Part shown: positions 16,639 to 40,297 of the stretch, piece after piece
Layout: each line of letters begins with the position of its first letter
Position numbering within the stretch: position 1 is the first letter of the stretch
Assembly: GCA_026125595.1 (NCBI GenBank)
Contig: JAHCKV010000001.1
Span: forward strand, 1-40,297
Direction: 5' to 3'
DNA from: Burkholderiales bacterium
GTDB lineage: Bacteria > Pseudomonadota > Gammaproteobacteria > Burkholderiales > Ga0077523
DNA length: 40,297 nucleotides
The notes under the pieces: generated by a model
Databases searched by the model: none
What the model was told of the DNA's origin: nothing
What the model saw: only the letters and a program-made list of their open reading frames with translations
Made by a program: the position numbers and the translations under genes

Positions 16639-17025
16639 CTACTCGGCCGCGGACGAAGAAGCGGCAGCGACCTGCGTGCCGAACGCGAAATACTTGCGAA
16701 CAGGTTCGATCACATCGACAACGCCCTTGAAGCCCGCCGGAATCACGCAGGCATCCCCGGGACCGCAGTCGGCCGCGGTGCCGTCCTCGGAAACAATTCG
16801 CAAACGCCCTTCGATGACAAAGAAGAACTCATGCATCGCGGCGGTCAGTTCGAGCCGGTAGGCACCGACCTCGCATTCCCACCAGCCACATTCGAACTCA
16901 CCGGCGGGCGCGGAAAAGCAGACCCGGGTCGTCTGGACCGGATTGCCGTGCACGCGCCGATCGGAGGCCGGATGCTCGACGACCCCGACCGTGCTGTCGG
17001 GGGTCAGAAGCGAAGCGTGAATCAT
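16639..17025 (-). CDS. Cupin-fold protein (DUF861/cupin_3-like)
   Basis: 128 aa. GEFECGWWECEVGAYRLE...HEFFFVIEGRLRIVSEDGTAADCGPGDACVIPAGFKG..VIEPVRKYF fits the small single-domain cupin pattern. It starts 22 nt downstream of the dmfA2-like gene. Confidence 0.7.
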   Translation of the reverse strand: MIHASLLTPDSTVGVVEHPASDRRVHGNPVQTTRVCFSAPAGEFECGWWECEVGAYRLELTAAMHEFFFVIEGRLRIVSEDGTAADCGPGDACVIPAGFKGVVDVIEPVRKYFAFGTQVAAASSSAAE

Positions 17026-17047
17026 CGTGTTCTCCCTGCTGTCGATA

Positions 17048-19366
17048 TCATCGCCACTGTTTCTCGTCCGCGATCCAGCCCCATCCGGGCAGCGGTCCGT
17101 CCTTCAGGAACGCATCGACCACGTTCTTGGTGATTCTCGAAACATTGTTGTCGAAATTGTTGTGCGGCAACGCGCTGCCCCACGCGATGGACCCGGTCGA
17201 GAACACGGCGCCGTGGTTCGGCGCGGTGTAGTAGGTGACATCCGCCCGGACCTTCGGCTCCTGCGTGCCGCCGAATCCCGGATGCATGTAGACCACGTCT
17301 TCGACGACGAGGATGTAGTTGTCGCTGTGACCACCGGAGGATGCGAGGATCTTCGTGTGGGGCGGCGTGCCGAGTTTCAGATCGTAGCGATCCAGCTCGA
17401 CGCCGGCTGCACCGCCACGCGCCAGGCCGAAATCGCCGAACACCTCGCCCTCCACCCCGTCCATGATCCACGACACCGTCCGGTGATAGCTGTCGGGCAT
17501 GCGGCGGAACGGCCGGGATTCCTCGAAACCTTCGGCCGTGAATCCGACGCCGAGGATCTTCTGCGGCGGGCGACCGCGATTCTTCCACAGGCCGCTCTTC
17601 TCGCCCGTCGTCTGCAGGTAGTGCTCGCCGGGCTTGGCCTCCCACGCCCGGGACCCGGAATCGAGCTTGCGGACTTCCATGATCCAAGGCTGATCGTCGC
17701 GGAACCCGACGCACCAGTAGAACCCGTTGCCGCCCATGTACAACAACCGGCCGCCGCTCTCGATGTAGTCCTCGCTGGCGTCGAGCATCGGCTCCGAAAA
17801 GTATTCCGGGTGGCTTCCCGTCAGCACGCACTTGTACGGCGCGAGCGCTGCCAGGCCCTCGCGGTGCAGATCTTCGTCGGTCAGCACTTCGTAGTCGTAC
17901 GCCATCGCTTCGAGCCAGCCGATGATCGACAGGTCGGCGGGAAACTGCCACGTGCAGCCCATGCTCGACATCCGGTGCTTCGGTCGCATGTTGACGATGG
18001 GACGTCGATACGACGTGAAGCACACCCCTTTGCCATCGATGAATCGGTCGTAGGTGGACAGACCGAACTCCTGATTCTTGTACATCTCGACGTCGATCTC
18101 CGCGACGATCGGCGGTTGCCCCGCCATCGGCTGGATGATCTGCGCGTCGAAGCTCAGGTGTTCGTTCGCATAGGCGAGATAGCTGGCGGTCGGGATCAGC
18201 ATCGCGACCTTGGCCTTCGGCTGCGCCGCGCGGACGAAGAACACGACGTACTCTTCCGCCAGCCCTGTGCCGTCACCGGCACGCAGCCGCATCGCGTACA
18301 CGCCGCTGCGCAGGCTCTCCGGCACCGTGAACGCAAAGGTCGGCTCCCAGTTGCTGTCGATCATCACGTCGACATGGAACTCGATGCCGCCGTACTGCTC
18401 GGGCGCGAGCCGGAAGCAGTCCTCGCGGCCATTCCAGTTCCAGCCGGTTTGCCCACGGATCGGTTTGTTGTAGCCCACCGAATGCAGCCCGTGCGGCCCG
18501 ACATCCAGCACCGTATCGCCGATGCCGCGGGCGTCGTATCCCTTGGTCGTATCCCAGTGGGCGACCAGTCCGTCCTTGGGCAGCTCACGGCCGCTGCGGA
18601 TGCCGTCCAGCGCTTCGCGACTCAGCGCCTTCGCGTACACGCCGTGACGATCGATCTTGCCGCAATAGCATTGCCCGATGAAATGGCCGCGCAGTTCATG
18701 CCAGTCCTGCGCACCGCTCACGATGAAAGGCGCATCTTGATTGCGCGGCTTCACCCGCATCGGCTCGGTGACATGGGAGCGATAGTCGTACGGCGTGACT
18801 TTCGACAGCAGGCTGTTGTAGCGCGTCAGCATCCCTTCCTGGTAGAGCGTGACGCGTCGCGTCTGCGCGTCGTAGCTGGCGGCGACGAAGTACCAGACAT
18901 TCGCCACCAGCGGAATCTCCGCGCCGACATAGTCCACTTCGGTTCCGTCGCCCATCCAGAACTCGAGGTAGCCCTTCGGATTGATGCCGAGGCAATAGCC
19001 TTCGTTGCGATCGATGGACCAGCGCCCCACCAACGCCTGCCGCACGTTGAAGGCCGGCAGCGTCGGCTGGATATAGGCGTAGACCGTGAAGCTCTCGGAC
19101 AGCGCAAGCCGGTTCTGCGGATCAGCGACACGCAGGAACGAGCCGACCTGGGTGTACTGCTTGCGCGCCGGCCATTCGCGATTCGCCGTGCTCTGGATCT
19201 CGCGCTCGACGAAACCGGGACCGGTTGGGTGCTCGTCGCCGTGGATCAGCCGGACCAGCTGCGCCGAGATACGATCGGTGCCATCCGCGCTGACCATGAA
19301 GTTCATCGCGTCGCCGGGCTTGACGGACAGTCGGTCGCAGTAGCCGAAGATCTTGATTTGAGCCAT
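17048..19366 (-). CDS. dmfA2: N,N-dimethylformamidase large (beta) subunit-like protein
   Basis: 772 aa. The N-terminus MAQIKIFGYCDRLSVKPGD...LVRLIHGDEHPTGPGF, and the blocks SYLAYANEH, STYDRFIDGKGV, TGSHPEY, GGAAGVELDRYD and LGTPPHT, match the DmfA2 family as I recall it from Alcaligenes/Paracoccus/Methylobacterium DMFases. The size also fits (about 760 aa). Confidence 0.8.
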   Translation of the reverse strand: MAQIKIFGYCDRLSVKPGDAMNFMVSADGTDRISAQLVRLIHGDEHPTGPGFVEREIQSTANREWPARKQYTQVGSFLRVADPQNRLALSESFTVYAYIQPTLPAFNVRQALVGRWSIDRNEGYCLGINPKGYLEFWMGDGTEVDYVGAEIPLVANVWYFVAASYDAQTRRVTLYQEGMLTRYNSLLSKVTPYDYRSHVTEPMRVKPRNQDAPFIVSGAQDWHELRGHFIGQCYCGKIDRHGVYAKALSREALDGIRSGRELPKDGLVAHWDTTKGYDARGIGDTVLDVGPHGLHSVGYNKPIRGQTGWNWNGREDCFRLAPEQYGGIEFHVDVMIDSNWEPTFAFTVPESLRSGVYAMRLRAGDGTGLAEEYVVFFVRAAQPKAKVAMLIPTASYLAYANEHLSFDAQIIQPMAGQPPIVAEIDVEMYKNQEFGLSTYDRFIDGKGVCFTSYRRPIVNMRPKHRMSSMGCTWQFPADLSIIGWLEAMAYDYEVLTDEDLHREGLAALAPYKCVLTGSHPEYFSEPMLDASEDYIESGGRLLYMGGNGFYWCVGFRDDQPWIMEVRKLDSGSRAWEAKPGEHYLQTTGEKSGLWKNRGRPPQKILGVGFTAEGFEESRPFRRMPDSYHRTVSWIMDGVEGEVFGDFGLARGGAAGVELDRYDLKLGTPPHTKILASSGGHSDNYILVVEDVVYMHPGFGGTQEPKVRADVTYYTAPNHGAVFSTGSIAWGSALPHNNFDNNVSRITKNVVDAFLKDGPLPGWGWIADEKQWR

Positions 19367-19400
19367 GGGGAGAATGCGGAAAGGAAGCGGTGTATGTCGA

Positions 19401-19766
19401 TCAGGATTCGAGAAGGTCCTGCACCCGGCGCAGGAACACCGCGTGGTAGGCCTCGTTCTCGCTCGTGTAGATCTTGTCGTCGACCAGCCGCGGCGCCACG
19501 CCGCGCTGGCCGGACAGCGCGACGATGCGGTACTCCTTGAACGGTTTGGTCATGGTGATCGCGTACTTGTCCACCTGGCCGGCGCGGCGGAAGTAGACGA
19601 GCAGACGTTCCAGCTGCTCGCTGTGCTGACCGAGCGGACGCCGCCGGTGTTCTTCGATGACGTCGTCGTCGATCAGCCCTTTCAGATAGTCGCGCTGCAT
19701 CTTGTCGAACCGGCGGAAGTAGATCTGATCCTTGTCCGCGGTTTCGGTCGCCTCTTCGGGAAGCAT
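19401..19766 (-). CDS. dmfA1: DMFase small (alpha) subunit-like segment, in frame within the 3' part of the permease ORF, with its own SD and ATG
   Basis: AAAGGAGGTGAA-ATG at 19766. The 121 aa are soluble and align without gaps to the small protein at 27900..28340 (27/68 identical by hand, for example YRIVALSGQRGVAPRLVDD vs WRIGRLSGIRGVPPVFVDD, and YHAVFLRRV vs QHAIFLMRL). The segment lies 34 nt upstream of the dmfA2-like gene, which is the dmfA1 position. Confidence 0.6.
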   Translation of the reverse strand: MLPEEATETADKDQIYFRRFDKMQRDYLKGLIDDDVIEEHRRRPLGQHSEQLERLLVYFRRAGQVDKYAITMTKPFKEYRIVALSGQRGVAPRLVDDKIYTSENEAYHAVFLRRVQDLLES

Positions 19767-20984
19767 TTCACCTCCTTTCTCGGATCGGGTGGATCGGAAC
19801 TCGCTCTTCTTCTTGTTGCGCCAGGCCCGGAACTGCAGCTTCGTGCCGAACAGTCCGTTGCGCAGGAACAGCACCGTCATCATCATGATGAAACCGATCA
19901 GGATCAGCCGCATCGGCCCCCACTCGAGGAAATACTTCTCGAGGAAGATCACGATCAGCGTGCCGACGACGGCTCCTTCGGCGCGCCCGAGGCCGCCGAT
20001 CACGATCATCGCCAGCATCAGCAGCACGACATCGAAGCTGAACAGCGAAGGCGATGCACCGCGGAAATGCGCGGCGTAGAAGCCCCCGATGAAACCGAGC
20101 GCGATCGACGAGATGATGAACACCCGGATGCGTGCCGCCCGGTAGTTGATGCCGGTCGCCTCGGCGAACGCCTCCTTCTTCTCCGGTGCCGCGCGCAGGA
20201 TGCGGCCAAGACGCGTACCGTTCACGAAGCGATAGAGGAACAGCGCGCCGATCATCAACAGCATGCAAGCGTAGAAGCCCAGCAGCAGCTGATGGTTCTC
20301 GCTCCAGCTCTCCGGGAAATAGCTGTCGGCGCCGTACAACCCGCCGGTTGCCGACCCGAACAGCTTCGACTGCACGACATAGACGCGGCACAGCTCGTTG
20401 ATGCCCAGCGTCAGCAACGCGTAGTAGAACCCGTCCAGCCGCGTCGCCGGCAACGCGATCAACGTGCCGAATATCAGGCCGAAGCCGCTGCCGACGAACG
20501 GCAGCGCCCACCACGGCAGACCATAGTGGATCGACAGATAGGCCGATCCGTAGGCAGCGGCGCCGACCACCGCCGGACTCGCGAGCGAGAAGATGCCGGC
20601 CGTGCCGACGATCAGCATCCAGCACAGGTTGATCGCGGCGTAGATGCCGAAGATCGCACCGGCGGCGAGCAGCGTGCTCGATTCCACGAAAGGCGCGATC
20701 GCGGCGAGCGCTGCTAGCCCGAGTACCCAGTACACCGGGCGCCGGTCGACGATGGTCTTCTCGGCGCGCAGGCTCTTCGGGTTGTAGACGCCGCGCAACC
20801 GCAGCACGTTGCGCCGCGTGAACGGGTAGCGCAGCCGCCACAGATTCGAGCTGTGGGCCGGCCACTTGTAGTACCAGCGCAGACGGCCGACGGGGTGCAG
20901 CGCCGCCTTCGATCGAGCACCCGCCGACGACCAGACGTCCTGCGGGTTCTTCCAGGCGGCGGACTTCCAGACTTTGTCGAACAT
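19401..20984 (-). CDS. UrtC/LivM-type ABC permease ORF that reads through, with no stop, into the DmfA1-like segment
   Basis: 527-aa ORF. An ~85-aa cytoplasmic N-terminus is followed by a hydrophobic permease core ending ...VLFLRNGLFGTK, then the basic linker LQFRAWRNKKKSEFRSTRSEKGGE, then the DmfA1-like 121 aa. The start is 3 nt after the upstream permease stop. Confidence 0.8.
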   Translation of the reverse strand: MFDKVWKSAAWKNPQDVWSSAGARSKAALHPVGRLRWYYKWPAHSSNLWRLRYPFTRRNVLRLRGVYNPKSLRAEKTIVDRRPVYWVLGLAALAAIAPFVESSTLLAAGAIFGIYAAINLCWMLIVGTAGIFSLASPAVVGAAAYGSAYLSIHYGLPWWALPFVGSGFGLIFGTLIALPATRLDGFYYALLTLGINELCRVYVVQSKLFGSATGGLYGADSYFPESWSENHQLLLGFYACMLLMIGALFLYRFVNGTRLGRILRAAPEKKEAFAEATGINYRAARIRVFIISSIALGFIGGFYAAHFRGASPSLFSFDVVLLMLAMIVIGGLGRAEGAVVGTLIVIFLEKYFLEWGPMRLILIGFIMMMTVLFLRNGLFGTKLQFRAWRNKKKSEFRSTRSEKGGEMLPEEATETADKDQIYFRRFDKMQRDYLKGLIDDDVIEEHRRRPLGQHSEQLERLLVYFRRAGQVDKYAITMTKPFKEYRIVALSGQRGVAPRLVDDKIYTSENEAYHAVFLRRVQDLLES

Positions 20985-20987
20985 GCG

Positions 20988-21884
20988 TCAGGCCTCGCGT
21001 GCCTTGTCGAGCATTCCGGCGATGCCGCGCGGGCGGATCAGCAGGATGATGATGATCAGCGCGAACTGCGTGATCAGGACGTACTGGCCGCCGAGGTAAG
21101 CCGACGTCAGCGATTCGTTGAGCCCCAGGATTGCGGCGGCGATCAACGCGCCCGACACGCTGCCGAGCCCGCCGCACAGCGCGACACTGACGCCCTTGAT
21201 CATCGGTGTGAGGCCGGAGAACGGACTCACGAAGTAGGTCTGGCACAGCAGCACCGCCGCCAGCCCGGCGAGGGCGCCGGTCAGCGCCATCACGTAGATG
21301 CCGGTGCGGCGCACGCCGATGCCGACGATCGCGGCGCCGTGGGGATTCATCATCATCGCGCGGATCTCGAGGCCGCGGCGACTCGACTTCAGCCACGTCA
21401 GCGTCACGGCCAGCAGCAGGATCGACGACACCAGCGCGCCGGCCTTGTCCGCCGTCAGCACGATGGCGCCGAACTCGGCCTGCCATTCGCCGAACACCGG
21501 CGGCAACGTCTTCACCCGCGGGCCGAAAATCCACAGCAGGATCTGCGTGCCCATCAGGCTGAGCGCCAAGGTCGCGATCAGACCGCGGACCGGGAAGTTC
21601 GGCTTGTCGTGAATCGGGATGAACGTCATCAGGCAGACCAGTACGCCCGCCAGTGCGCCGGTGCCGATACCCGCCGCGACGACGGCGACGCCGGTGATGA
21701 TCGGATCGACGTCGACCATCAGTTCCGCAACGCCCCACGCGCCATAGCCGGCGACGGCGAACGTAAGGCCGTACGCCATGTTGACCATGCCGACGCTGGA
21801 CCAGGTGATCGAGATGCCGATCGCGAGCAGTCCGTAGATCGAGGCCAGGGTCAGCGCCGACAGCAGGATGTACGACCAATCCAT
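20988..21884 (-). CDS. UrtB/LivH-type ABC permease
   Basis: 298 aa and polytopic, with family-typical MDWSYILLSALTLASIYGLLAIGISITWSSVGMVNMAYG. It abuts the ATPase gene stop. Confidence 0.9.
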   Translation of the reverse strand: MDWSYILLSALTLASIYGLLAIGISITWSSVGMVNMAYGLTFAVAGYGAWGVAELMVDVDPIITGVAVVAAGIGTGALAGVLVCLMTFIPIHDKPNFPVRGLIATLALSLMGTQILLWIFGPRVKTLPPVFGEWQAEFGAIVLTADKAGALVSSILLLAVTLTWLKSSRRGLEIRAMMMNPHGAAIVGIGVRRTGIYVMALTGALAGLAAVLLCQTYFVSPFSGLTPMIKGVSVALCGGLGSVSGALIAAAILGLNESLTSAYLGGQYVLITQFALIIIILLIRPRGIAGMLDKAREA

Positions 21885-22607
21885 TCAGGCCTCCCGCACC
21901 GTTTGGGCGGCGAGCCCCACGGCAGCCTCGCCCTTCAGCTTGCCGGCATGCATGCCGATCAGACGATTCACGCGACCTTCCAGAAGCGACACGTTCTGCT
22001 CGGCGATCACCATCGCGGCGTCGCCGAGTTCGACGCTCATCAACGCGTCGACCACGCCCTTGCTGATCTTCGGCGCGAGACCGAGCGACGGCTCGTCCAC
22101 CAGGAACAGCGACGCATCGGCCATCAGTCCGCGACCGAGCGACACCATGCGCCGCTCGCCGCCCGACAACCGACCGACCGCGGTCGCCATCAGCTTCTCG
22201 AGCGGCGGAAAGATCTCCAGCACGCGGCGCTTGCGTTGCGCGCGTTCGCGCCAGGCCCGCGGCGTGAACGCGCCGCTGTCGAGGTGTTCCTCGACGGTAA
22301 GTCCGGTGAAGATCTCGTCGCCCTGCGGCATCAGCGCGAGACCGAGCTTCACGACCCGATGGGTGAATCGTCCCGGTCCCTGACTGCGCGTGCCGCCGAC
22401 TTCATGACCGTTCAGCCGGATCGATCCACGCTGCCAGCCGGTGAGTCCTGCGATCGCGAGGAACAGCGTCGACTTGCCGTGGCCGTTGAGACCCACCAGC
22501 CCGACCCGCTCGCCGGAATACACGACGAGATCCAGATCGTGCAGCACGCGCAGCGGACCGTAGCCGGCGGACAGGCCCTTGACGTTGAGCACTTCGCGCG
22601 TGGCCAT
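21885..22607 (-). CDS. UrtE/LivF-type ABC ATP-binding protein
   Basis: 240 aa with Walker A GLNGHGKST, the signature LSGGERRM, and Walker B LFLVDEPSLGLAP. Confidence 0.9.
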   Translation of the reverse strand: MATREVLNVKGLSAGYGPLRVLHDLDLVVYSGERVGLVGLNGHGKSTLFLAIAGLTGWQRGSIRLNGHEVGGTRSQGPGRFTHRVVKLGLALMPQGDEIFTGLTVEEHLDSGAFTPRAWRERAQRKRRVLEIFPPLEKLMATAVGRLSGGERRMVSLGRGLMADASLFLVDEPSLGLAPKISKGVVDALMSVELGDAAMVIAEQNVSLLEGRVNRLIGMHAGKLKGEAAVGLAAQTVREA

Positions 22608-22610: not shown

Positions 22611-23365
22611 TCAGTGCTCCGCGCCGAGGTTGTCGAAATAGGCGGCGCGCACACGGGCGTCGGCGAGAATGTCCCGCATCTGGCCCTGCGCGATGACCTC
22701 GCCGACATCCATGACCAGCACGCGATCGGCGATGGTGTCGAGCAGCTCGATCCGGTGCTCGACGATGACGATGGCAACGTTGAGTTCCTTCGCCAGCAAC
22801 CGCACCAGATGATCGATCTCGTCGACCTCGGAGTTGATCAAGCCGGCGGCGGGCTCGTCCATCAGCAGCAGCGGCGGTCGACGCATCAAGCAGGCAGGCC
22901 AGCAAAGCTGCGACGATTGAGTGTCTCGAGGCTGCCGGCGATCTGATCTTCGTTGACCTTCAGCCCGACCAGTTCACACGCCCAGTCGGCATGGTGCCGG
23001 GTGCGATAGGGCGCGTAGGCCTGCCGGGCCGCCTTCAGCACTTCGGCAACGGTCAATTCCTCGGGCACCACCGGCGTTTGATAGGTGCGTCCCAGCCCCA
23101 TGCGCGCACGCTCGTACAAGCGCATCCCGGTGACATCCTGATCCTTGAACCGGACCACGCCGCTCTTGGGCGGCATGCGCCCCGACAGCACTTCGAACAG
23201 GCTGGTCTTGCCGGCGCCGTTCGGTCCGATGATGCCCAGCACCTCGCCGCGCCGGACCGACAGCGACACGCCCTTCAGGATCTCCCGCCCGCCCAGGTCG
23301 AGCCGGATATCGCGACACTCGAACAGGGGCGAAGCGGGATCGGCAGTGGACACCGTCGCGTTCAC
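22611..23365 (-). pseudogene. UrtD/LivG-type ABC ATP-binding gene, reading frame broken just before Walker B
   Basis: The N-terminal ORF 22886..23365 has Walker A GPNGAGKTS and the Q-loop. The C-terminal ORF 22611..22889 begins (L)MRRPPLLLMDEPAAGL (Walker B). The expected connecting helix LLACLL is readable only in the third frame (ORF starting at 22905). The frame changes map to about 22906 and about 22887-22890. Confidence 0.75.
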
Positions 23366-32226: not shown

Positions 32227-32916
32227 ATGCCCTCTTCATTGAACCCCGCCGGACTGGATCCGGCCGCCGTGAAGGCAGGCTACGAGCACTACCGCCGTGG
32301 CGACTTCGCCGCCGCCTACCAATGCTGGCTGCCGGCGGCCGAAGCCGGCGATGCCGAAGCGCAGGCCTGGATCGGCACGCTGCACGAATGCGGCGAAGGT
32401 GTCGTGCAAAGCTATGCGGAAGCCTTCCGCTGGTATCTCCAATCCGCCGAAGCCGGCAACATCCTCGCGCAGAACAATGTCGGCGCGATGTACGGCATGG
32501 GCCGCGGCGTTGCGCGCGACGATCTGAAGGCCGCCGAATGGCTGGAACGCGCAGCGACCCAGGGCGATACCAATGCCATGTTCAACCTGGCCGTGTTCCA
32601 TGCCAAGGGCCGCGGCGTCGCGGTCGACATGGCACGCGCGGTGGAGTGGTACACGCGCGCATCGCATCTGGGGCATGCGCCTTCGCAGGCGCGGCTCGGC
32701 TATCTGTACTGCGGCAACGACGGTGTCGCGAAGGACCGGATCAGCGCCTTCGTGTGGTTGTCGCTGGCCGGCAATCACGGCGCCGGCAACGCGCTGAATG
32801 CCCTCGAACCCATCGTGGACCAGATGTCCGTCGAGGAGAAGGAAGCCGCCCATCGGCGGCTCGCCGCGTTCCGACCGGCCGCCATCGGCACGTCGGCCCA
32901 ACGCGCATCCGCCTAG
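32227..32916 (+). CDS. Sel1-repeat (SLR/TPR-like) protein
   Basis: 229 aa with about 5 tandem ~36-aa Sel1 repeats (A.WY..AA..G...AQ..LG.MY..G.GV..D). Examples are AFRWYLQSAEAGNILAQNNVGAMYGMGRGVARD and AVEWYTRASHLGHAPSQARLGYLY. Confidence 0.85.
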   Translation: MPSSLNPAGLDPAAVKAGYEHYRRGDFAAAYQCWLPAAEAGDAEAQAWIGTLHECGEGVVQSYAEAFRWYLQSAEAGNILAQNNVGAMYGMGRGVARDDLKAAEWLERAATQGDTNAMFNLAVFHAKGRGVAVDMARAVEWYTRASHLGHAPSQARLGYLYCGNDGVAKDRISAFVWLSLAGNHGAGNALNALEPIVDQMSVEEKEAAHRRLAAFRPAAIGTSAQRASA

Positions 32917-32941: not shown

Positions 32942-33676
32942 TCAGGTTTGACCCGTCTCGCCGTAGACGATGATGGACAGCATGCGGATGGGTGTCTGCA
33001 GCAGTTTTTCCGGACCGTGGGGCACTTCGCCACGGAACGTCAGCGAGTCACCGGGCTGCAGCAGATAGGTCTGCTGACCGTGCCGGTACTCGATGACGCC
33101 CTCCAGGATGTGGATGAACTCGGTGCCCGGGTGCTCGAAGCTCGGAAACACTTCGCTGGCGTCGTCCATCAAGACCAGGAACGGCTCGAAGGTCTTCTGC
33201 GGGCCCTTGTCGTAGGCGAGCAGTTGATACGTGTGTCCCCGTTTCGTGCCTCGCCGGACCACCTGCATGCCGTCACCCTGATGCACGTGTTGCGCACCGC
33301 CGGTCGGCAGATCGTAGTTCGCGAACAACCGGGCGAGCGAAATGCCCAGTGCTGCCGACAGTTTTGCCAGCGTGTCGAGCCCGGTCGACACCTGGCCGTT
33401 CTCGATCTTCGACAACATCCCGCGACTGATGCGCGCCTGCTCCGCCACGTCGGAGATGGTCAGCCGCTGTTGCCGGCGCTGTTCGCGGATCACGCCTCCG
33501 ATGGCCCGTTCGAGGGCGCGCTCGCCGGCATCACGCCCGGTCGCGACTTCGGCTTCGTCATCGGGCACCGGCTCGGCCGGTCGCTGCGGCGCCCGCAGCG
33601 ACTTCGCCGCCGGTACCGGCTCCGGCCGCACCTTGCGGCGGCCGTCGGTCTTGGTACGAATCGGTCCCTTGGCCAC
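32942..33676 (-). CDS. XRE-family HTH + cupin transcriptional regulator (paralog 2)
   Basis: It shares long identical runs with 26282..26953 (VVRRGTKRGHTYQLLAYDKGP, KTFEPFL, FEHPGTEFI, YLLQPGD, VPHGPEKL, LSIIVYGE). A GTG at 33676 preceded by GGAG (5-nt spacer) avoids overlap with dmmC. The alternative ATG at 33748 would overlap dmmC by 58 nt. Confidence 0.8.
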   Translation of the reverse strand: MAKGPIRTKTDGRRKVRPEPVPAAKSLRAPQRPAEPVPDDEAEVATGRDAGERALERAIGGVIREQRRQQRLTISDVAEQARISRGMLSKIENGQVSTGLDTLAKLSAALGISLARLFANYDLPTGGAQHVHQGDGMQVVRRGTKRGHTYQLLAYDKGPQKTFEPFLVLMDDASEVFPSFEHPGTEFIHILEGVIEYRHGQQTYLLQPGDSLTFRGEVPHGPEKLLQTPIRMLSIIVYGETGQT

Positions 33677-33690
33677 GATCGCTCCGCGGT

Positions 33691-34731
33691 TCAGTCGGGT
33701 GCGCCGCCGGGCGACGTCGCCGCCCCGTCGTCGTAGCGCGCGAGCCATTCCAGCGCCATGTCACGGTAGCGCGTGAGACCCTTGTAGTCGACCAGTTGCT
33801 GCGGCAAGGACCGCAGCACCCGCGGCAACCGGCGACCCCATTTCGGCACGGTGACCAGGTCCTCGAGGCTGATCAGGTAGCAGCGGATCGGAAACACGAT
33901 CGCATTGCTGCGCGGCAGCCGCCAGAAGCTCTGCAGCTCGACGCGCAGGTGCAGCTTGCGGCCGATGTTGTCGGGCGTCAGCGAGAGCCGGTCGGGACCC
34001 CAGCTCGGGTAACGTTCCGGCGACGTATCGAGCCGCGGATTGACGGTCATGGTCCAGTTGAGCCGGCGCACCGGCGAGCCGACCCGCAGTTCGAGCAGGT
34101 ACTTCAACGCCCGCTCGAACACGCCCATCTCGTGGGCCAGCGGCACCGGACCGTGCCATTCGAAGAAGTTCATGCCGATGTCGAAATCGAGCGACCAGTC
34201 GGCCTGCGTCGTGATCATCCCGGCATCCATCCAAAGATTGCCGTCGCGGTGATCGAGCAGCGCGAAGTCGCCCTGGGACTGCCGCGTGACGTATTCCATG
34301 GGCTCGCACGGCAGCGTCAACGCATCGCCGAACACGAACCGCTGATCGAGTCCGAGCGGCCGGTTGATCCAGTGCCAGCGGTCACCGTCGCGAGTCAGTG
34401 CGAAGTGCTCGGGGTAGTCCCGCGCCATCGCCGTCATCAACAGTTCCAGCAGATCCCATTGCGCGGTCATCATGTGCGGCAGCGCCTGGCAGCGCAGCGG
34501 ATCCTCGCGCAGCACCAGCGCGCGATCGCGCATCTCGGACACGTAGTGCTCGTCCACGTCGATCGGAAACTCGTAGACGGAGCCTTTCGGCCCGGGCACG
34601 TGGGGCTCGATGTTGACCGCGTACATGTACCGGTCCTCGTGGAACGGGAACGGGAAGCGCCGGATCGCGTGGGGACTGTTGCGGAACGTGAAGTCGTCCC
34701 GGAACGTCTCTTCGTTGAATGCCAGTTCCAT
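33691..34731 (-). CDS. dmmC: Heme-dependent oxidative N-demethylase alpha / dimethylamine monooxygenase DmmC (DUF3445)
   Basis: 346 aa, MELAFNEETFRDDFTFRNSPHAIRRFPFPFHEDRYMY... The family call comes from the sequence pattern and from the position as the last gene of a D-A-B-C order. Confidence 0.8.
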   Translation of the reverse strand: MELAFNEETFRDDFTFRNSPHAIRRFPFPFHEDRYMYAVNIEPHVPGPKGSVYEFPIDVDEHYVSEMRDRALVLREDPLRCQALPHMMTAQWDLLELLMTAMARDYPEHFALTRDGDRWHWINRPLGLDQRFVFGDALTLPCEPMEYVTRQSQGDFALLDHRDGNLWMDAGMITTQADWSLDFDIGMNFFEWHGPVPLAHEMGVFERALKYLLELRVGSPVRRLNWTMTVNPRLDTSPERYPSWGPDRLSLTPDNIGRKLHLRVELQSFWRLPRSNAIVFPIRCYLISLEDLVTVPKWGRRLPRVLRSLPQQLVDYKGLTRYRDMALEWLARYDDGAATSPGGAPD

Positions 34732-34752: not shown

Positions 34753-35718
34753 TCAAAGGTCGAGCACGAGCTCGCGCCCGTCGAAGCGGGATACGCACGG
34801 CATGATCTTGCGCCCGGCCGCGCGGTCGGCGGTGGTCAGCCAATGGTCATGATGCTGCAGCCGACCATCACAGCCGAGCACCGCGGTTTCGCATTGTCCG
34901 CACGCACCGCCCCGACACAGATACGGCACTTCGACACCGGCGGCCTCGATCGCTTCGAGCAGGCTTTCGTGCTCGCCGACGTAGACGCGCAGGCCGGCAC
35001 GCTGCAGATACACGTCGAAGGGCGTGCCCGACGGCGGCGCCGCGAAATGTTCCGCGTGCAGATTGTGCCCGGGCCAGCCGGCCGCCCGGGCCGCCTCGAG
35101 CGTCGCGTCGATCAACGGCGTCGGGCCGCAAACGTACAGGTGGGTTCCCAGCGGCTGACTCGCCACGAGTTGCGTGACATCGAGCCGCTCCCCCTTCGAC
35201 GCACAGTAGAAGCGCACATGGCCGGGAAAGCAGCGTTCGAGCGCTTCGCGGTAGGCGCCGCGTTCCGGGCTACGGATGCAGTAGTGCAGCTCGAACGGCC
35301 GACCTTCGGCCGACAACTGGGCCATCTGCGCCAGGAACGGCGTGATGCCGATGCCGCCGGCCACCAGCACGTGCTTGCGGGCGCGCCAGTCCAGCATGAA
35401 CAGATTCACCGGCGCACTGACGGCGAGCGTATCGCCGACCCGGACGCGATCGTGCATGAACACCGAACCGCCGCGGGACACTTCGGCCCGTTGCACGCTG
35501 ATCTCGTAGTCGCCGTCGTGCAGCGGAGAACTCGTCAGCGAATACGGGTTGCGGCGAACGACGCCGCCATCGCGCATCTCGACGACGATGTGCGCCCCGC
35601 CCGAGTATCGCGGCAGCGGCGAAGCGTCGGTCGCGGCGAGGCGGAACCGCTTGACGAACGGCGTGACCGGAACGATCTCGGCGACGCGCACGGGACTGGA
35701 ACGGGGGCGGATGCTCAT
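34753..35718 (-). CDS. dmmB: PDR/VanB-type FMN + [2Fe-2S] oxidoreductase, DmmB
   Basis: 321 aa with the FMN site RNPYSL, NAD(P)H site VAGGIGITP, and C-terminal plant-type ferredoxin CRGGACGQC...C. The start overlaps the dmmA stop (ATGA at 35718..35715). Confidence 0.88.
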   Translation of the reverse strand: MSIRPRSSPVRVAEIVPVTPFVKRFRLAATDASPLPRYSGGAHIVVEMRDGGVVRRNPYSLTSSPLHDGDYEISVQRAEVSRGGSVFMHDRVRVGDTLAVSAPVNLFMLDWRARKHVLVAGGIGITPFLAQMAQLSAEGRPFELHYCIRSPERGAYREALERCFPGHVRFYCASKGERLDVTQLVASQPLGTHLYVCGPTPLIDATLEAARAAGWPGHNLHAEHFAAPPSGTPFDVYLQRAGLRVYVGEHESLLEAIEAAGVEVPYLCRGGACGQCETAVLGCDGRLQHHDHWLTTADRAAGRKIMPCVSRFDGRELVLDL

Positions 35719-36320
35719 CGGTACAGCTCCTCGGCCGGCGGCCGATCACCCGGCTTCTCGGCATCGATCATGACGCCCTGGAAAGCGCCGATGCGGCGCG
35801 AATAATGATCGCGCACGAACAGGTGCCGTCCGCAATGGGCGCAGGGCACGATGCTCATCGTCACCGACTCGGTGATGCCCTTGCAGTGCACGCATTGCAC
35901 GCGGCGCGCCAGCGAACCGCGATGCTCGGTCCGCACACCGGCATGATCGACGCCGAACTCGCCGGCGACCCGGATGCCTTCGCCGATCAACGGTTCGGTG
36001 CCGGCCAGATAGAGCTGCGTTCCCATCCGCGCCGCACCGAGCAACGCCCGCAGCCGGGGCAGCATCGCCGGCACCGTCGGCGATTCGTGCCACGAGAACG
36101 GCGCCAATGCGGCCAGCTTCGCGCCGTGGTCCTGCGCGGCCGAACCGCCCGGTACGTACAGTATGTGCGTCCGTGCCCAGAAGCCGTCCGGCGCGTCAGC
36201 CACCATGTCCAGTACCGCGAGCGCACCTTCGGCGTCGGCCACCATGATGTTCGACCGCGCCTGCGGATTCGACGTCAGCCGGCCGTAGACCGGCCGGCTC
36301 TTGATACCGGATGCCAACAT
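35715..36320 (-). CDS. dmmA: Dimethylamine monooxygenase subunit DmmA-family protein
   Basis: ATG at 36320 after GAAGAGG gives 201 aa. It has a C-terminal Cys cluster CVHCKG...PCAHCG. The gene lies between the GcvT-like and PDR-like genes, as in dmmDABC. The ORF-track N-terminal extension overlaps dmmD and is Arg-rich. Confidence 0.7.
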   Translation of the reverse strand: MLASGIKSRPVYGRLTSNPQARSNIMVADAEGALAVLDMVADAPDGFWARTHILYVPGGSAAQDHGAKLAALAPFSWHESPTVPAMLPRLRALLGAARMGTQLYLAGTEPLIGEGIRVAGEFGVDHAGVRTEHRGSLARRVQCVHCKGITESVTMSIVPCAHCGRHLFVRDHYSRRIGAFQGVMIDAEKPGDRPPAEELYR

Positions 36321-36334
36321 GTTCGCGACCTCTT

Positions 36335-37486
36335 CTACGACTGCCCCTTGCCGACGACGGTACGCTTCCTCTTCTCCGGATCGTCGAACGGAATCGAATG
36401 GGCGATCGCGGACGCCTGCACCGACTTGCCGCGCACGTCGAGCCGGGTGCCATGCACGGCGTACTTCGGATCGAACCGCGCCAGGGCCATGGATTTTCCG
36501 GTCAGCTTGGACACCATGCCGCAGGTGATCACGCCCACCTGGCGCCCGTCGGCCCACAACGTGTCACCGCCATCGGTCGGCGCGTCCGCATCGACCAGCA
36601 CGCCGAAGATCTTCATGCGTTCCTTGCCCTTCAGCGCGTAGTGCCGATCGGCGCCACGAAAACCCGTCTTGCCGGGACTCACCGTGAAATCGAGACCGAG
36701 CTCCCACAGCGAATCACCATCCACCGAGTCAGGCGTCGCATAGGGATACATCAACGAGTTGTCGTACGGATAGAACAGCAGGTACGACTCGACGCGCAGC
36801 ATGTCGAGCACCGTGAAGCGGCACGGAATAATGCCGAACGCCTTGCCCTCCTCGAGGATCGTGTCCCACAGGAACACGGCGTCCTTCGCGCCGACGAAGA
36901 TCTCGTAGCCGCGCTCGCCGGTGTAGCCGGTCCGCGAGATCATCACGTGGCGACCGAACAGCGTCGTCTGCAGATGATGGAAATACTTCAGGTCGTGGAT
37001 GCCCGGCACGTGCCCGGCGAGGAACTCGACCGCCAGCGGCCCTTGCAACGAAAGATCGTGCAGATCGTCGTCGAAGCGGATCGACACATCCTTGCCGACG
37101 GCGGATCGCGCGATCTCTTCCTGCCCGGTGCCACTGCCGTGCACGACCAGCCACGAATTCGGCGACAGGCGATAGCAGATGCAGTCTTCGGTGAAGTATC
37201 CGGCATCGTTCAGCATGGCCGCATAGACCGACTTGCCCGGATACACCTTCGACAGATCGCGGGTCGTGGCGTGGGTCAACACGGCCGTGGCGTCGGGACC
37301 GGTGACGTGCACTTTCTTCAGTCCGCTCACGTCCATCAGGCCCGCCCTGGTGCGGATCGCGATGTGTTCGGCGTACATGTCCTTGTCGTAGGTCCACGCC
37401 GTACCCATGCCGTTCCAGTCTTCGAGCCGCGAGCCGAGAGCGCGATGGCGATCGGCCAGTACCGAGGTGCGCCAGGATGTGGTCAT
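36335..37486 (-). CDS. dmmD: GcvT-family (tetrahydrofolate-binding aminomethyltransferase-like) protein, DmmD
   Basis: 383 aa with GcvT-fold blocks (AIRTRAGLMDVSGLKKVHVTGPDA, ISRTGYTGERGYEIF, LRVESYLLFYPYD). Confidence 0.85.
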   Translation of the reverse strand: MTTSWRTSVLADRHRALGSRLEDWNGMGTAWTYDKDMYAEHIAIRTRAGLMDVSGLKKVHVTGPDATAVLTHATTRDLSKVYPGKSVYAAMLNDAGYFTEDCICYRLSPNSWLVVHGSGTGQEEIARSAVGKDVSIRFDDDLHDLSLQGPLAVEFLAGHVPGIHDLKYFHHLQTTLFGRHVMISRTGYTGERGYEIFVGAKDAVFLWDTILEEGKAFGIIPCRFTVLDMLRVESYLLFYPYDNSLMYPYATPDSVDGDSLWELGLDFTVSPGKTGFRGADRHYALKGKERMKIFGVLVDADAPTDGGDTLWADGRQVGVITCGMVSKLTGKSMALARFDPKYAVHGTRLDVRGKSVQASAIAHSIPFDDPEKRKRTVVGKGQS

Positions 37487-37535: not shown

Positions 37536-39848
37536 TCAGGCGCGGACGCGCTTCTTGTCCGGGTCGTAGTGCGGAAACGGCTCGACCGTGCAGTCGAGAC
37601 GCTTCTGGTGTCCGTCGAGCTTGCCGATCTCGAGCGCGGTGCCCGGTTCGACGTGGACGATATCCACCCGCGCCAGCGCGATCGTGCGATTCAGGATCGG
37701 TGAGTGCATGCCGCTGGTGACGACACCGATCTGTGCCCGCCCGGCGCATACCGGATCGCCGTGCACCGGCACGTCGCGTCCTTCGACGGCGAGGCCGACC
37801 AACCGGCGCTGCGGATGGGCCGCGCGCCGCTGCAGCGCTTCGCGACCGACGAAGTCGGCGCGCTTCGTGGCCAGCGGCACCGTGAAACCGATGCCGGCCT
37901 CGAACGGATCCGTCTGATCGCAAAACTCGTAGCCGGCAAACACGAGTCCTGCTTCGATGCGCAGCAGGTCGAGCGCCTCGAGGCCCAGCGGCGCGATGCC
38001 CAACGGCGCGCCCGCGGCGAACACCGTGTCCCATATCGGCGTCGCGTCCTTCGGGTGGCACCAGATCTCATAGCCGAGCTCGCCGGTATATCCAGTGCGC
38101 GACACCACCACCGCCGGCCCGGTCGGACCGCCGACCCTTGCGATCGCGAAGCGAAACCACTTCAGTTCGCCGATCGACGGTTGCGTCGGCGCGGTGAACA
38201 GCATGCCGTCGAGCAACTCGCGGCTGCGCGGTCCTTGCACGCTCAGGTTGTGCAGTTGGTCGGTGGACGAGCGTACCCAGGCACGGAAGCCCTTTTCTTC
38301 GGCAAGCCGACGCAACCACAGCCCGCAGTACGGATCACCGCAGACGAAGCGGAAGTTGTGCGGCCCGAGCCGGAACACGGTGGCGTCGTCGAGCATGCCG
38401 CCATGCGGATGGCAGACGGCGGTGTAGACCACTTGCCCGACGGCCAGCCGCGTGATGTCGCGGGTCACCGCGAAATCGAGCAGTGCTTCAGCGTCGGGAC
38501 CCAGCACTTCGAACTTGCGCAGCGGTGACAGATCCACGGCCGCGACCTTCTCGCGGCATGCCCAGTACTCCGCGATCGCACCTTCGCTGGCATAGGACGC
38601 CGGCAACCAGTAGCCGCGATACTCGGTCATGCGGCGCGACAGCGGCGCGGTGCGGGCATGGAAGGCCGTCTGCTGCGTCAGAACCGGCGGGCTGTCGGGT
38701 GTCACGCGCATGGCGATGGCTCGCGGAAAGTGATGCTCGGCCGGATAGACACGGACCTGGATGTCGGTCGGGTTCCAGCCGTTGGCGGGGTCGATGTCGT
38801 CGGGACAGGCAGACGACGCGCAGACCAGATCGGACAGCGCGCGCATCAGTACGTAGTCGCCCGGACGCGACCACGGCTCGTCGAGCCCGATGCGGTCGTC
38901 CGCGACGGTCGTGTTGTAGAAGAAGTTGATGGCCGGCCAGCCCGGGCGGCTCGCGATGCCGAACGGGGCGAGCACCTGGTTGAAGTTCTCCGAGCAGTTG
39001 GCGTGGCCCGGATATCCCATGTCGTCGTAGTACCTGGCCGTGCAGGCCAGCGCGAACGTGTCGTGCCGCCCGCAGGTGTCCTGCACGACTTCGAGCATCG
39101 GGCGCATCCGTGCGTCGAAGAACTTCGACGCGAGCCCCGGCCCGGGATAGCTGCGGCCGGTCAGCGTGCGCGTCACGGTGGCATCGAGCCCCACTTCGAC
39201 GCCCTGCTCCAGCTGCCACGCATCGAATGCGAGGAAATCGGAGCACTCGCGCCCTTCGATGTCCACCACCTGGATCCATTCGCCGGCGGCCACGCGATAG
39301 GCCTGCGCTGTACCGTGGGCGATCCGGAAATCGAGCCGCGGCGGCGCCAGCGGCGCCGGCGCCTCGACCCGTACCACCGCCGCTGCGCGACGGACGATGC
39401 GGATCGCATAGTCCGTGGCGCGCACCGGCGATTCGATCGACGGCGTCTGCGGCGGGATCGCCACGATGCACAGCAGAGGCTCCGCGACCTGCGCCTGCAG
39501 CACTTCACCCGGCAGTTGCTGCGCGCCGGACAGCGCGATGGCACCGGCTGCCAGCAGATCGCGACCTACGCATCGCGGATCGGATAGCGGTTCGAAGCCG
39601 CACGCGGCGCAGATCGCGGGCAGCGTGCCGCGGCCTTGCGGTACGCGACCGAGCGCCGCCGCGCCATCACCGGCGGCGGACAGCGCGAACAGCCACGCGC
39701 CCTGGCCACCTTCGACATCGACGATCGACAGCACGTCACCGGCCTGCAGGGTGATCACTCGACATGCGCCTCCCGGCACCCGCAGTTCCGTGGCATCCGG
39801 CACGGCGGCCGGACCGGGGGAAGCCGACATTGCGACGGCGTCGATCAT
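37536..39848 (-). CDS. tdm: DUF1989 + GcvT fusion protein, trimethylamine-N-oxide demethylase (Tdm)-like
   Basis: ATG at 39848 overlaps the flavin reductase stop (ATGA) and gives 770 aa. The N-terminal DUF1989-type region is FRIAHGTAQAYRVAAGEWIQVVDIEGRECSDFLAF...CSENFN...DYVLMRAL. The C-terminal GcvT domain is VSRTGYTGELGYEIW, LRIEAGLVFAGYEF. This architecture is what has been described for Tdm. The 74-codon upstream extension in the ORF track is Arg/Gly/Pro-rich. Confidence 0.78.
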   Translation of the reverse strand: MIDAVAMSASPGPAAVPDATELRVPGGACRVITLQAGDVLSIVDVEGGQGAWLFALSAAGDGAAALGRVPQGRGTLPAICAACGFEPLSDPRCVGRDLLAAGAIALSGAQQLPGEVLQAQVAEPLLCIVAIPPQTPSIESPVRATDYAIRIVRRAAAVVRVEAPAPLAPPRLDFRIAHGTAQAYRVAAGEWIQVVDIEGRECSDFLAFDAWQLEQGVEVGLDATVTRTLTGRSYPGPGLASKFFDARMRPMLEVVQDTCGRHDTFALACTARYYDDMGYPGHANCSENFNQVLAPFGIASRPGWPAINFFYNTTVADDRIGLDEPWSRPGDYVLMRALSDLVCASSACPDDIDPANGWNPTDIQVRVYPAEHHFPRAIAMRVTPDSPPVLTQQTAFHARTAPLSRRMTEYRGYWLPASYASEGAIAEYWACREKVAAVDLSPLRKFEVLGPDAEALLDFAVTRDITRLAVGQVVYTAVCHPHGGMLDDATVFRLGPHNFRFVCGDPYCGLWLRRLAEEKGFRAWVRSSTDQLHNLSVQGPRSRELLDGMLFTAPTQPSIGELKWFRFAIARVGGPTGPAVVVSRTGYTGELGYEIWCHPKDATPIWDTVFAAGAPLGIAPLGLEALDLLRIEAGLVFAGYEFCDQTDPFEAGIGFTVPLATKRADFVGREALQRRAAHPQRRLVGLAVEGRDVPVHGDPVCAGRAQIGVVTSGMHSPILNRTIALARVDIVHVEPGTALEIGKLDGHQKRLDCTVEPFPHYDPDKKRVRA

Positions 39849-40297
39849 GGCGCTGCCACCGGATGCTCGTCCGCGATGGCGCGGTAGTGGCTGCGGAAGT
39901 ACAGCAGCGGCAGACCGTCGGGGTCGAAGCCGAAATCCACCACCCGCCCCACCACGATCACGTGATCGCCGCCGTCGTGCTGCACGTGGGGCAGGCACTC
40001 GAAGGTGGCCAGCACGTCGTCCAGCAGGGGCACGCCCCGGGCGCTGCGGCGGAACGCCACCGCGTCCCACTTGTCGGCCCCGGCGCTGGCGAAGCGGTGG
40101 GACAGATCGCGCTGGTCGTCGCGCAGGATGTTGATGCCGAAACCGCGGCAGCCCAGCAGGGGGGCACAGCTCCAGGCCCGGCGCGACAGGCTGAACAGGA
40201 TCAGCGGCGGTTCCAGGGACACGGTGTTGAAGGAGTTGGCCGTGACCCCGATGAGCCCGGCCGTGTCGTGCTCGGCCGTGATCACGGTGACGCCGGT
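39845..40297 (-). CDS. Flavin reductase-domain protein (HpaC/RutF-like), 5' end outside the window
   Basis: The reverse strand reads ...TGVTVITAEHDTAGLIGVTANSFNTVSLEPPLILFSLSRR...GDHVIVVGRVV, the flavin reductase-like FMN-binding fold. The frame is open to the window edge. Confidence 0.8.
   Translation of the reverse strand, partial: TGVTVITAEHDTAGLIGVTANSFNTVSLEPPLILFSLSRRAWSCAPLLGCRGFGINILRDDQRDLSHRFASAGADKWDAVAFRRSARGVPLLDDVLATFECLPHVQHDGGDHVIVVGRVVDFGFDPDGLPLLYFRSHYRAIADEHPVAAP

Follow-up and report, generated by a model that had tools for sequence, protein, structure and literature searches.

N,N-dimethylformamidase (DMFase) has been described as a soluble enzyme of two subunits that belongs to solvent degraders. 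In the solved enzyme of Paracoccus sp. strain DMF (PDB 6LVB), the large (beta) subunit holds Fe(III) through Y399, Y440 and E521 and has H519, N547 and E657 as catalytic residues; it is inactive alone, and the small (alpha) subunit is needed for activity and forms part of the substrate entrance (PMC7686228). Here we describe a metagenomic contig of a Burkholderiales bacterium (JAHCKV010000001.1, assembly GCA_026125595.1) that encodes two DMFase-like systems within a gene cluster at positions 16639-40297; the window analyzed is the entire contig of 40,297 bp. In the first system the small subunit is the C-terminal domain of an ATP-binding cassette (ABC) transporter permease. This conserved permease-alpha fusion is the finding of wider interest and the most informative feature of the region.

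The locus shares with the Paracoccus enzyme, and with the genes dmfR-dmfA1-dmfA2 of P. aminophilus pAMI2, the same three-domain large subunit, the small-subunit fold and a LuxR-family neighbor, and its first large-subunit paralog keeps the Tyr-Tyr-Glu Fe(III) ligands and the catalytic His, Glu and Asn. It differs from them in that the alpha subunit of system 1 is a permease domain rather than a free 15-kDa protein, in the presence of a dedicated ABC importer in the operon, in a LuxR protein that is not orthologous to DmfR, and in an N547D change in the second paralog. Like the urea importer UrtABCDE and the branched-chain amino acid importer LivJHMGF, which are of the hydrophobic amino acid uptake transporter (HAAT) type, the importer has a single Peripla_BP_6 binding protein together with two BPD_transp_2 permeases and a pair of ATPases; unlike them, it has a LivM-like permease with both a basic N-terminal extension of ~83 aa and a C-terminal enzyme-subunit domain, and one of its ATPases is frameshifted. 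All five proteins of the tdm and dmmDABC systems of Methylocella silvestris, Ruegeria pomeroyi and Paracoccus aminophilus (PMC5520151, PMC4543880) are also present, whereas tmm, tmoXVW/tmoP and gmaS/mgs/mgd are not on this contig, and a flavin reductase is translationally coupled to tdm here. The regulator beside these genes is of the XRE-cupin type, in contrast to the AraC-type TmaR of R. pomeroyi (PMC13390433).

Genes were picked by third-position GC (GC3); at 65% G+C, raw lists of open reading frames (ORFs) are full of spurious frames. The chosen genes were scanned against Pfam and NCBIfam hidden Markov models (HMMs), and PDB searches were run in addition. The cluster falls into three modules, at 16639-26084 (module 1), 26282-32916 (module 2) and 32942-40297 (module 3). 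An earlier note, written from the letters of this DNA, had named the gene types of the region; GC3-guided calls and HMM scans place them where it had them, and its family assignments survive HMM searches, with Tdm above its equivalog cutoff, DmmDABC complete in D-A-B-C order, and both large subunits full-length with their Fe ligands. The same note had counted two DMFase-like systems, both of which we find, but it had overlooked three things: the fusion of alpha to a permease in system 1, the frameshift in the livG-like ATPase gene and the lack in module 2 of the ABC importer present in its relatives.

The small subunit of system 1 is a permease domain

Module 1 is a minus-strand operon with tight junctions (0-34 nt). 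Its products are a substrate-binding protein (SBP), a pair each of ATPases and permeases, a large subunit of DMFase type and a cupin; a LuxR gene adjoins it. No free small-subunit gene was found near this large subunit; the module's alpha subunit is the C-terminal domain of the LivM/UrtC-like permease (19401..20984, minus strand, 527 aa), which has its BPD_transp_2 domain at aa 112-370 and is fused to alpha in frame. The C-terminal 115 aa of the permease match residues 13-127 of the 132 of 6lvb_B (E 1e-11), and the identity of this domain to the known DMFase small subunit is 34%, as is that of the small subunit of system 2. The alpha domain (121 aa; 19404..19766, minus strand) follows a basic linker from the last transmembrane helix (19767..19844, minus strand) that ends in an invariant EKGGE hinge and is conserved as protein, with synonymous codon variation. 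An AlphaFold2 model of the permease tail (mean predicted local distance difference test score 77.9) shows a helical basic linker, a disordered hinge, KGGEMLPEEATE, and then four helices and two strands, the content described for the solved small subunit (PMC7686228). A Foldseek search with this model gave significant PDB matches only to 6lvv_B, 6lvb_B and 6lvd_B, each with a probability of 1.00 and a target-normalized template modeling score of 0.75-0.81.

To place the fusion among relatives, one genome per GTDB species was scanned; this gave 196 relatives, the best match in the collection being 81%, and frame continuity was read in the best 80 of them (loci in relatives are numbered with an L). 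The last transmembrane segment, linker and alpha domain form a single tblastn segment in 80/80, and a 444-aa query running from permease V84 to the C-terminus aligns without a stop in most of these loci. The EKGGE motif is present in all 75 loci with a readable junction, its codons varying synonymously. The residue that follows it is M in 47 of the 75 and A, V, I, T or L in the other 28. In the window, the alpha domain starts at an in-frame ATG at 19766, just after the Shine-Dalgarno-like sequence AAAGGAGGTGAA; the junction DNA, GAGAAAGGAGGTGAAATG, thus carries both signals within the open frame. Because EKGGE is invariant, its codons change synonymously and 28/75 loci have no M, it is the fused protein, and not an internal start, that is conserved; selection therefore acts on the fused protein, with the internal start optional.

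Two alternative accounts of the junction were considered. A lost stop codon or gene-calling artefact in this contig was rejected, being at odds with the same frame continuity in ~80 species and with a linker conserved at the protein level. The internal Shine-Dalgarno-like sequence and ATG as the real start of a free small subunit finds no support as a general rule, since 28/75 loci lack the ATG. GGAG or GAGG before the site is commoner where there is an ATG (35/47 ATG loci against 8/24 non-start loci, although the loci are related and the counts not independent), and dual products are possible in a subset of loci that includes the window.

The fused permease also has an N-terminal extension of ~83 aa (20736..20984, minus strand) that is very basic (19 K/R against 4 D/E) and conserved in 81 locus hits. 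Its motif across these hits, VGRLRYYYKWPGHG...TRRRVL.IRGEYNPKTLRREKTIVDKRPIWW (also rendered VGRLRYYYKWPGHG...RGEYNPKTLRREKTIVDKRP), is clear, and the extension has no family assignment. By the positive-inside rule, both the extension and the linker are predicted to be cytoplasmic; no solved HAAT permease structure was found in the PDB for the topology. The extension of the fused permease clade may be a second cytoplasmic docking element.

The six-gene order of SBP, LivG-like, LivF-like, LivH-like, LivM::alpha and large subunit recurs in ~76-82 of the loci examined. The carriers, among the best 80 of the 196 relatives, span Alpha-, Beta- and Gammaproteobacteria and include Methyloversatilis, Methylobacillus, Methylobacterium, Methylopila, Hansschlegelia, Hyphomicrobium, Methylocella silvestris, Ancylobacter, Bradyrhizobium, Rhodopseudomonas and Verminephrobacter, as well as many metagenome-assembled genomes (MAGs). 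XRE-cupin homologs flank the fused operon in Bradyrhizobium and Methylopila. A homolog search with the tail returned 156 proteins with PF26354 (DMF_alpha), many of them labeled 'branched-chain amino acid transport system permease', and in the gene contexts of relatives, proteins of 550-590 aa with PF02653 and PF26354 are followed by a DMFA2_C protein. In a library clustered at 50%, 445 proteins make up the alpha family. Most are free and 110-145 aa long; those of the fused form fall together into a few clusters, which makes this form one tight clade. One further member, P0347, has 891 aa with an alpha domain at residues 27-123, long enough a chain for a large subunit, which suggests a rare single-chain alpha-beta fusion elsewhere.

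In open-access full-text literature, no mention of a permease-fused DMFase subunit was found; the fusion is visible in precomputed Pfam annotations of databases, and a literature description is apparently lacking. One survey preprint counted 41 genomes or MAGs with the DMFase small subunit, far fewer than with the large subunit; a second, which likewise found it in far fewer genomes, called the small subunit's confinement to certain genera unexplained. The fusion accounts for part of this shortfall in Proteobacteria. The small subunit is hidden in genes annotated 'branched-chain amino acid ABC transporter permease', and for one widespread clade this puts right what had been inferred from gene content. 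For annotation, the fused operon is a recognizable unit, and so is the module of system 2 with its Rieske-derived and Sel1 partners; at present they go under generic labels like 'LamG domain protein' or 'hypothetical protein'; on Rhizobium plasmid pMK-2 (L001), the same operon is annotated as 'permease' and 'LamG domain protein'.

Some relatives carry additional genes beside the fused operon. A second large-subunit copy lies past it in L003, L092, L043, L050, L054, L063, L070, L075, L078, L081, L083 and L084. A free alpha is confirmed in just two of these, L003 and L092, where the genes run LivM::alpha, beta, free alpha, beta and the free alpha starts exactly at the hinge point (MLPEEA or MLAAKA). 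Upstream of many fused operons (L008-L012, L015, L016, L021, L026, L027 and other alphaproteobacterial loci) is a second binding-protein-like gene in divergent orientation, 29-33% identical to the operon SBP and absent from the window; it might encode an AmiC-like cytoplasmic sensor. In L001, gfa, fghA and the gene for a formaldehyde-sensitive repressor (3792-5267), of glutathione-linked formaldehyde detoxification, adjoin the fused operon, a hint of a substrate that releases one-carbon (C1) units.

Two DMFase-like large subunits

Both large subunits align over their full length with the solved Paracoccus enzyme. Large subunit 1 (17048..19366, minus strand, 772 aa; DMFA2_C Pfam E 8e-93) matches 6lvb_A with E 1e-198 over residues 2-760, and large subunit 2 (28393..30804, plus strand, 803 aa; DMFA2_C E 1e-90) with E 4e-158. 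Paralog 1 is 43.8% and paralog 2 39.3% identical to pAMI2 DmfA2; between themselves they are 39% identical. Functional residues were taken from PMC7686228 and checked in a 23-sequence alignment. Y399, Y440, H519, E521, N547 and E657 are all kept in paralog 1 and its 16 orthologs, with the gate residue F693 changed to Y. In paralog 2 and four orthologs N547 is replaced by D (five clade members checked) and the other residues are kept; an N547A change inactivates the Paracoccus enzyme (PMC7686228). By alignment, the DMFase fold and metal site of the large subunits are secure.

The paralog 2 clade is large and well conserved: the 120 best homologs listed are all at least 75% identical, and they include proteins of Bradyrhizobium, Methylorubrum extorquens, Aminobacter and Mesorhizobium.

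A proposed model of import-coupled hydrolysis

We read the region as three catabolic modules set side by side, which act on methylated amines and small methylated amides and in which the module-1 amide would be hydrolyzed at the cytoplasmic face of its importer. We give this reading a probability of about 0.6; it builds on the homologies, the catalytic residues, the conserved in-frame fusion and the operon structure, whereas the substrate, the docking, the trapping and the regulator-effector pairs are inferred. Because the small subunit is required in the Paracoccus enzyme and is here tethered to the permease, the large subunit would be recruited to the transporter, docking on the permease-borne alpha domain through a tether of ~40 residues made up of the basic helix and the flexible EKGGE hinge. 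The imported amide would then be hydrolyzed at the transporter's cytoplasmic face. The fusion predicts a complex of transporter and enzyme that can be tested for.

Small formamides carry no charge and cross membranes freely. Their hydrolysis at the exit would therefore keep the solute inside, in the form of formate plus dimethylamine or methylamine, and ATP-driven uptake would become in effect a one-way process. Conversion at the transporter makes uptake irreversible in group translocation by the phosphotransferase system and in vectorial acylation, where fatty-acid transport is joined to acyl-CoA synthetase. The logic proposed here is the same; in the present case, however, a structural subunit of a hydrolase is linked covalently to an importer that runs on ATP and depends on a binding protein, and the coupling is a proposal. 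We consider import-coupled hydrolysis, with moderate confidence, the most likely mechanism.

Module 2 would supply a paralogous amidase with a free small subunit under an XRE-cupin regulator, and module 3 would convert trimethylamine N-oxide (TMAO) to dimethylamine and on to methylamine, passing C1 units to tetrahydrofolate. A link to methylated amines is seen in dmmDABC and tdm on the same contig, in N-methylglutamate genes at L089 and L091, and in gfa/fghA at L001. The contiguous route claimed in the earlier note, from amide and TMAO through dimethylamine to methylamine, is genetically plausible, though based on homology: the amide substrate is unproven, paralog 2 has N547D and the livG-like gene of the importer is broken.

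Several observations weigh against this reading. The next solved relative of the large subunits, the N-acetyl-beta-phenylalanine acylase 8huy, has the same fold (E 1e-119). DMF as the substrate is unproven, resting on 44% and 39% identity to the genetically validated DmfA2, and a similarly divergent paralogous dmfA1A2 pair of P. aminophilus (34%/40%) is not linked to DMF use (PMC4543880). A LivH/LivM heterodimer supplies one alpha domain, against the alpha2beta2 form of the solved enzyme; internal initiation or another transporter could furnish the second alpha. The livG-like gene is frameshifted and comM is split, which may mean a dead importer in module 1 of this contig or an error of assembly. 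Finally, in all 80 related loci tdm and dmmDABC are absent within 10 kb, and the case for a functional tie between the modules rests on a single contig.

The frameshift also bears on the possibility that module 1 is a decaying remnant here, its importer non-functional through the broken livG, with only system 2, dmmDABC and tdm in use. The LivG/UrtD-like ATPase gene (22611..23365, minus strand) is split into two ORFs (22886-23365 and 22611-22889) by a 2-nt deletion and a 1-nt insertion near 22886-22915, within ~25 nt of each other, which give a net -1 shift between the signature region and Walker B. The gene is unbroken in L001 by three-frame translation comparison, and DNA alignments show one frame in seven relatives (among them L003, L005, L006, L008, L014 and L024). 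Four of the five HAAT importer components are thus intact, and one intact ATPase is found where such importers have two. Module 2 too is without its own ABC genes, relative to L087, L090 and L091, and a second gene, comM, is split. All other genes of module 1, however, are intact, with GC3 of 0.83-0.92 and conserved catalytic residues, and two split genes on a metagenomic contig could equally be assembly or consensus errors. We regard decay of module 1 as unlikely.

The importer of module 1 and its adjoining genes

The five-gene HAAT-type importer spans 19401-24908 on the minus strand. Besides the fused permease and the split ATPase it includes a LivH/UrtB-like permease (20988..21884, minus strand, 298 aa; BPD_transp_2 E 2e-28), a LivF/UrtE-like ATPase (21885..22607, minus strand, 240 aa; ABC_tran E 4e-24) and the periplasmic SBP (23388..24668, minus strand; Peripla_BP_6 E 1.5e-27), which has a Tat-like signal and starts at the M of MSSSFDRRDAIK. 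Among solved structures, the SBP is closest to 3h5l (E 2e-49), whose deposition names it a putative branched-chain amino acid ABC transporter.

FmdDEF of Methylophilus is a short-chain amide and urea importer. The earlier note had called the present importer 'Urt/Fmd-type', and Urt subunits are indeed its best NCBIfam matches, yet all lie far under the curated cutoffs (UrtB 110 bits against 250, UrtE 134 against 286, UrtC 57 against 296, UrtA 21 against 493), and the livG-like gene is frameshifted. The label is a fair description if taken as resemblance, not membership.

The last gene of the operon, 22 nt past the large subunit, encodes a 128-aa EutQ-like Cupin_3 protein (16639..17025, minus strand; PF05899 E 6e-17). 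It is not a DMFase subunit, and it was rejected as the small subunit of system 1: it has no similarity to DmfA1, and no homolog was found in any of the 80 related loci.

At the other end, the adjoining gene encodes a LuxR/GerE-family regulator (24984..26084, minus strand; GerE E 1.6e-11) whose N-terminal domain has no assignment. Homologs with 45-58% identity adjoin the fused operon in L005-L007, L014 and L017 (Methyloversatilis and Methylobacillus). An orthologous relation to DmfR was rejected, the match to pAMI2 DmfR covering only a 47-residue helix-turn-helix (HTH) at E 0.019; a tblastn search of plasmids found no Paracoccus match.

Module 2 and its relatives

Besides the second large subunit and a free small subunit, module 2 encodes an XRE-cupin regulator, a small protein without family, a Sel1 protein and a Rieske-derived one. 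The free small subunit (27900..28340, plus strand, 146 aa) matches the alpha profile by hhalign (probability 98%, E 3e-13) and is 33.8% identical to pAMI2 DmfA1 (E 8e-8), and its homologs carry PF26354. A separate small subunit, as DMFase has, is therefore found in system 2 and not in system 1. XRE-cupin regulator 1 (26282..26953, minus strand; HTH_3 and Cupin_2) is 82% identical to the regulator in the same position at L087. The conserved small protein (27068..27481, minus strand, 137 aa) has no Pfam or NCBIfam match, and its counterparts in the same position are 61% (L087) and 48% (L089) identical; in L090 this place is taken by a gene of comparable length (104 aa).

The same module occurs in four related contigs (L087 and L089-L091), which share a canonical arrangement: the XRE-cupin and small-protein genes in opposite orientation, then an SBP, two permeases and two ATPases, and after these ABC genes the free alpha, large subunit, Rieske-derived protein and Sel1-like protein. 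In L087, L090 and L091 a complete, unfused five-gene ABC importer lies between the small gene and the free alpha; L089 is an exception, with its ABC genes downstream of the module and not upstream of alpha. The window has ~480 nt (27399-27882) where L087 has 5.5 kb, so the module-2 importer is missing on this contig. Scans for promoters, terminators and repeats in the intergenic regions of 24.8-28.4 kb returned nothing above chance.

L087 likewise begins with glnK-amtB, and module 1 (16.6-26.1 kb) takes the place of a single Polyketide_cyc2 gene there. At L089 the module adjoins a sarcosine-oxidase-like gene, gmaS, mgsABC and folD, and at L091 it adjoins mgsC. In both it has genes of the N-methylglutamate pathway beside it, and these neighbors link the paralog 2 clade to methylamine handling.

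The Rieske-oxygenase-derived protein (30904..32136, plus strand) scores 18.4 against the Pfam Rieske cutoff of 20.3 and matches GbcA-like proteins with E 3e-15. Compared with 9vdb_A, two of its four canonical ligands are replaced, C by A and H by T (CxH is AQH and CxxH is CFYT). Three homologs share an invariant H102/C105/C112/C120/C125/H127 block, FNFAQHGGCR.VP.QCQTG.KT.CFYTSCGHSRDRDV, and the His pair of the catalytic domain is not conserved among them. With its ligands changed, its His positions unconserved and its Pfam score under the cutoff, the protein was rejected as a canonical Rieske non-heme iron oxygenase alpha subunit; it may have a different metal site or be an accessory factor for the amidase. 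Such a protein invariably comes after large subunit 2, with homologs at L087 (12535-13698) and L089 (12511-13791). The Sel1-repeat protein (32227..32916, plus strand; four Sel1 repeats, E 3e-33) follows the Rieske-like gene in L087 and L089 as well.

Module 3 and the clustering of the modules

Module 3, on the minus strand throughout, is an ordinary member of a known system. The gene tdm (37536..39848, 770 aa) encodes a TMAO demethylase that scores 1169 bits against the cutoff of 1100 for the NCBIfam equivalog TmaoDeMthMsil and has DUF1989, GCV_T and GCV_T_C domains. Next come dmmD, a GcvT-type tetrahydrofolate-binding protein (36335..37486; GCV_T E 8e-59); dmmA (35715..36320; DmmA-like_N and DmmA-like_C, 111 bits against a cutoff of 60 for the NCBIfam DmmA family); dmmB, an FNR-like reductase with a 2Fe-2S ferredoxin domain (34753..35718; Fer2, NAD_binding_1 and FAD_binding_6); and dmmC, which resembles the alpha subunit of the heme-dependent oxidative N-demethylase (33691..34731; HODM_asu-like, PF11927 E 8e-70). 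All four parts of DmmDABC are present in the order D-A-B-C, with junctions of 14, -4 and 21 nt; subunits and order follow the published definitions (PMC5520151). XRE-cupin regulator 2 (32942..33748; HTH_3 and Cupin_2), the true start of which is uncertain, is 67% identical to regulator 1. The flavin reductase gene (39845..40297; Flavin_Reduct E 5e-37) is cut at its N-terminus by the contig end. Its stop overlaps the tdm start in ATGA (39845-39848) and it is therefore co-operonic with tdm-dmmDABC; its partner oxygenase, if any, would lie past the contig end.

The three dedicated regulators listed in the earlier note, one LuxR and two XRE-cupin, are all present. Because tdm and dmm were not found within 10 kb of the 80 related operons, the three-way clustering is peculiar to this contig and is not a conserved supercluster. 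The contig is the only genetic link found between the fused operon and dimethylamine or TMAO catabolism.

These facts raise the possibility that the clustering is fortuitous, bringing together three independently regulated neighbors without a shared pathway role. Each module has its own regulator and strand block, and tdm/dmmDABC is near neither any of the 80 fused operons nor any of the four related system-2 loci. Further, system 2 at L087 follows glnK-amtB without module 1, which suggests an insertion of module 1 here or its loss in L087. Set against this, the expected product of DMFase is the substrate of Dmm, the XRE-cupin regulators flanking modules 2 and 3 are paralogs with 67% identity, and in L089 and L091, relatives of system 2, downstream methylamine genes lie alongside. 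On balance a chance assembly seems improbable, and we favor the composite of three catabolic modules.

Candidate natural substrates

The breadth of the fused operon bears on what the enzymes act upon. The genes might have natural small amides as their physiological substrates (N-methylformamide, other N-alkylformamides or others) in place of DMF, and might serve mainly to scavenge nitrogen, with methylamine or dimethylamine being assimilated; we put this at slightly under an even chance. The fused operon is 60-89% identical across three proteobacterial classes, with many carriers from taxa of non-polluted sites (Bradyrhizobium, Methylocella, Verminephrobacter), and this breadth is hard to square with a solvent that was first made in 1893 (preprint 10.1101/2019.12.17.879908). 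Natural amides are also favored by the Paracoccus enzyme having its best kcat/Km on N-methylformamide (Table 1, PMC7686228), by gmaS/mgsABC beside the module-2 relatives, pointing to methylamine handling, and by glnK-amtB beside the genes in both the window and L087. The changes of F693 to Y throughout clade 1 and of N547 to D throughout clade 2 speak for them too. Pulling the other way, dmmDABC on the same contig fits a substrate that yields dimethylamine, and genera from DMF-fed enrichments in a survey preprint (Methyloversatilis, Hyphomicrobium, Starkeya/Ancylobacter and Rhodopseudomonas) are among the fused-operon carriers.

We tentatively suggest that the large amidase dimer sits on the cytoplasmic face of its own importer in a complex bound to the membrane, with import and hydrolysis as a single vectorial process that traps the amide. 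As the fused form occurs in no fewer than 80 species from three classes of proteobacteria, the DMFase family may then have arisen as a high-affinity scavenger of natural methylated formamides, the free-subunit plasmid enzymes of solvent degraders being derived or a side branch. We consider this reading possible, somewhat short of probable. The fusion also points to natural methylated formamides as an overlooked source of nitrogen or C1 units in soils and waters.

Cluster boundaries and upstream genes

Upstream of the cluster lie genes for an amidase, metH, an AAA ATPase, the split comM, a Gcw_chp protein and glnK-amtB. The hairpins that the earlier note had reported beside glnK-amtB at 16465-16612 were confirmed: one, terminator-like, lies 3' of amtB at 16465-16486 on the plus strand, and the second, at 16584-16612, has TTTTC after it on the minus strand. 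Also in agreement with that note, no tRNA was found in the window, no integrase or transposase domain among the ORFs scanned, and no domains of tmm, gmaS, mgs/mgd, mau or formate dehydrogenase were found among the window genes scanned. The GC plot that it had proposed shows no step at 16.6 kb, GC being 0.60-0.71 across the window. Its interest in sequence past the right edge finds nothing there, the window being the whole contig.

A mobile-element boundary was rejected, there being no tRNA, no Rfam match and no GC step, and comM, which we take to be a common island insertion site, being split by a frameshift and not by an insertion. This comM/yifB-like Mg-chelatase gene (11634-13131, minus strand) is likewise frameshifted, the second such case on the contig. 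Two overlapping ORFs make it up, of which 12265-13131 covers ChlI and Mg_chelatase profile positions 1-100 and 11634-12419 covers Mg_chelatase positions 95-205 and the C-terminal domain; it could be a real pseudogene or an assembly error. Two further genes of this part of the contig are unrelated to the cluster: a glycerophosphodiester phosphodiesterase with a PEP-CTERM sorting signal (2460-3719, plus strand), and the Gcw_chp family protein (13511-14611, plus strand), which lies in a stretch of lower GC (0.60) just before glnK.

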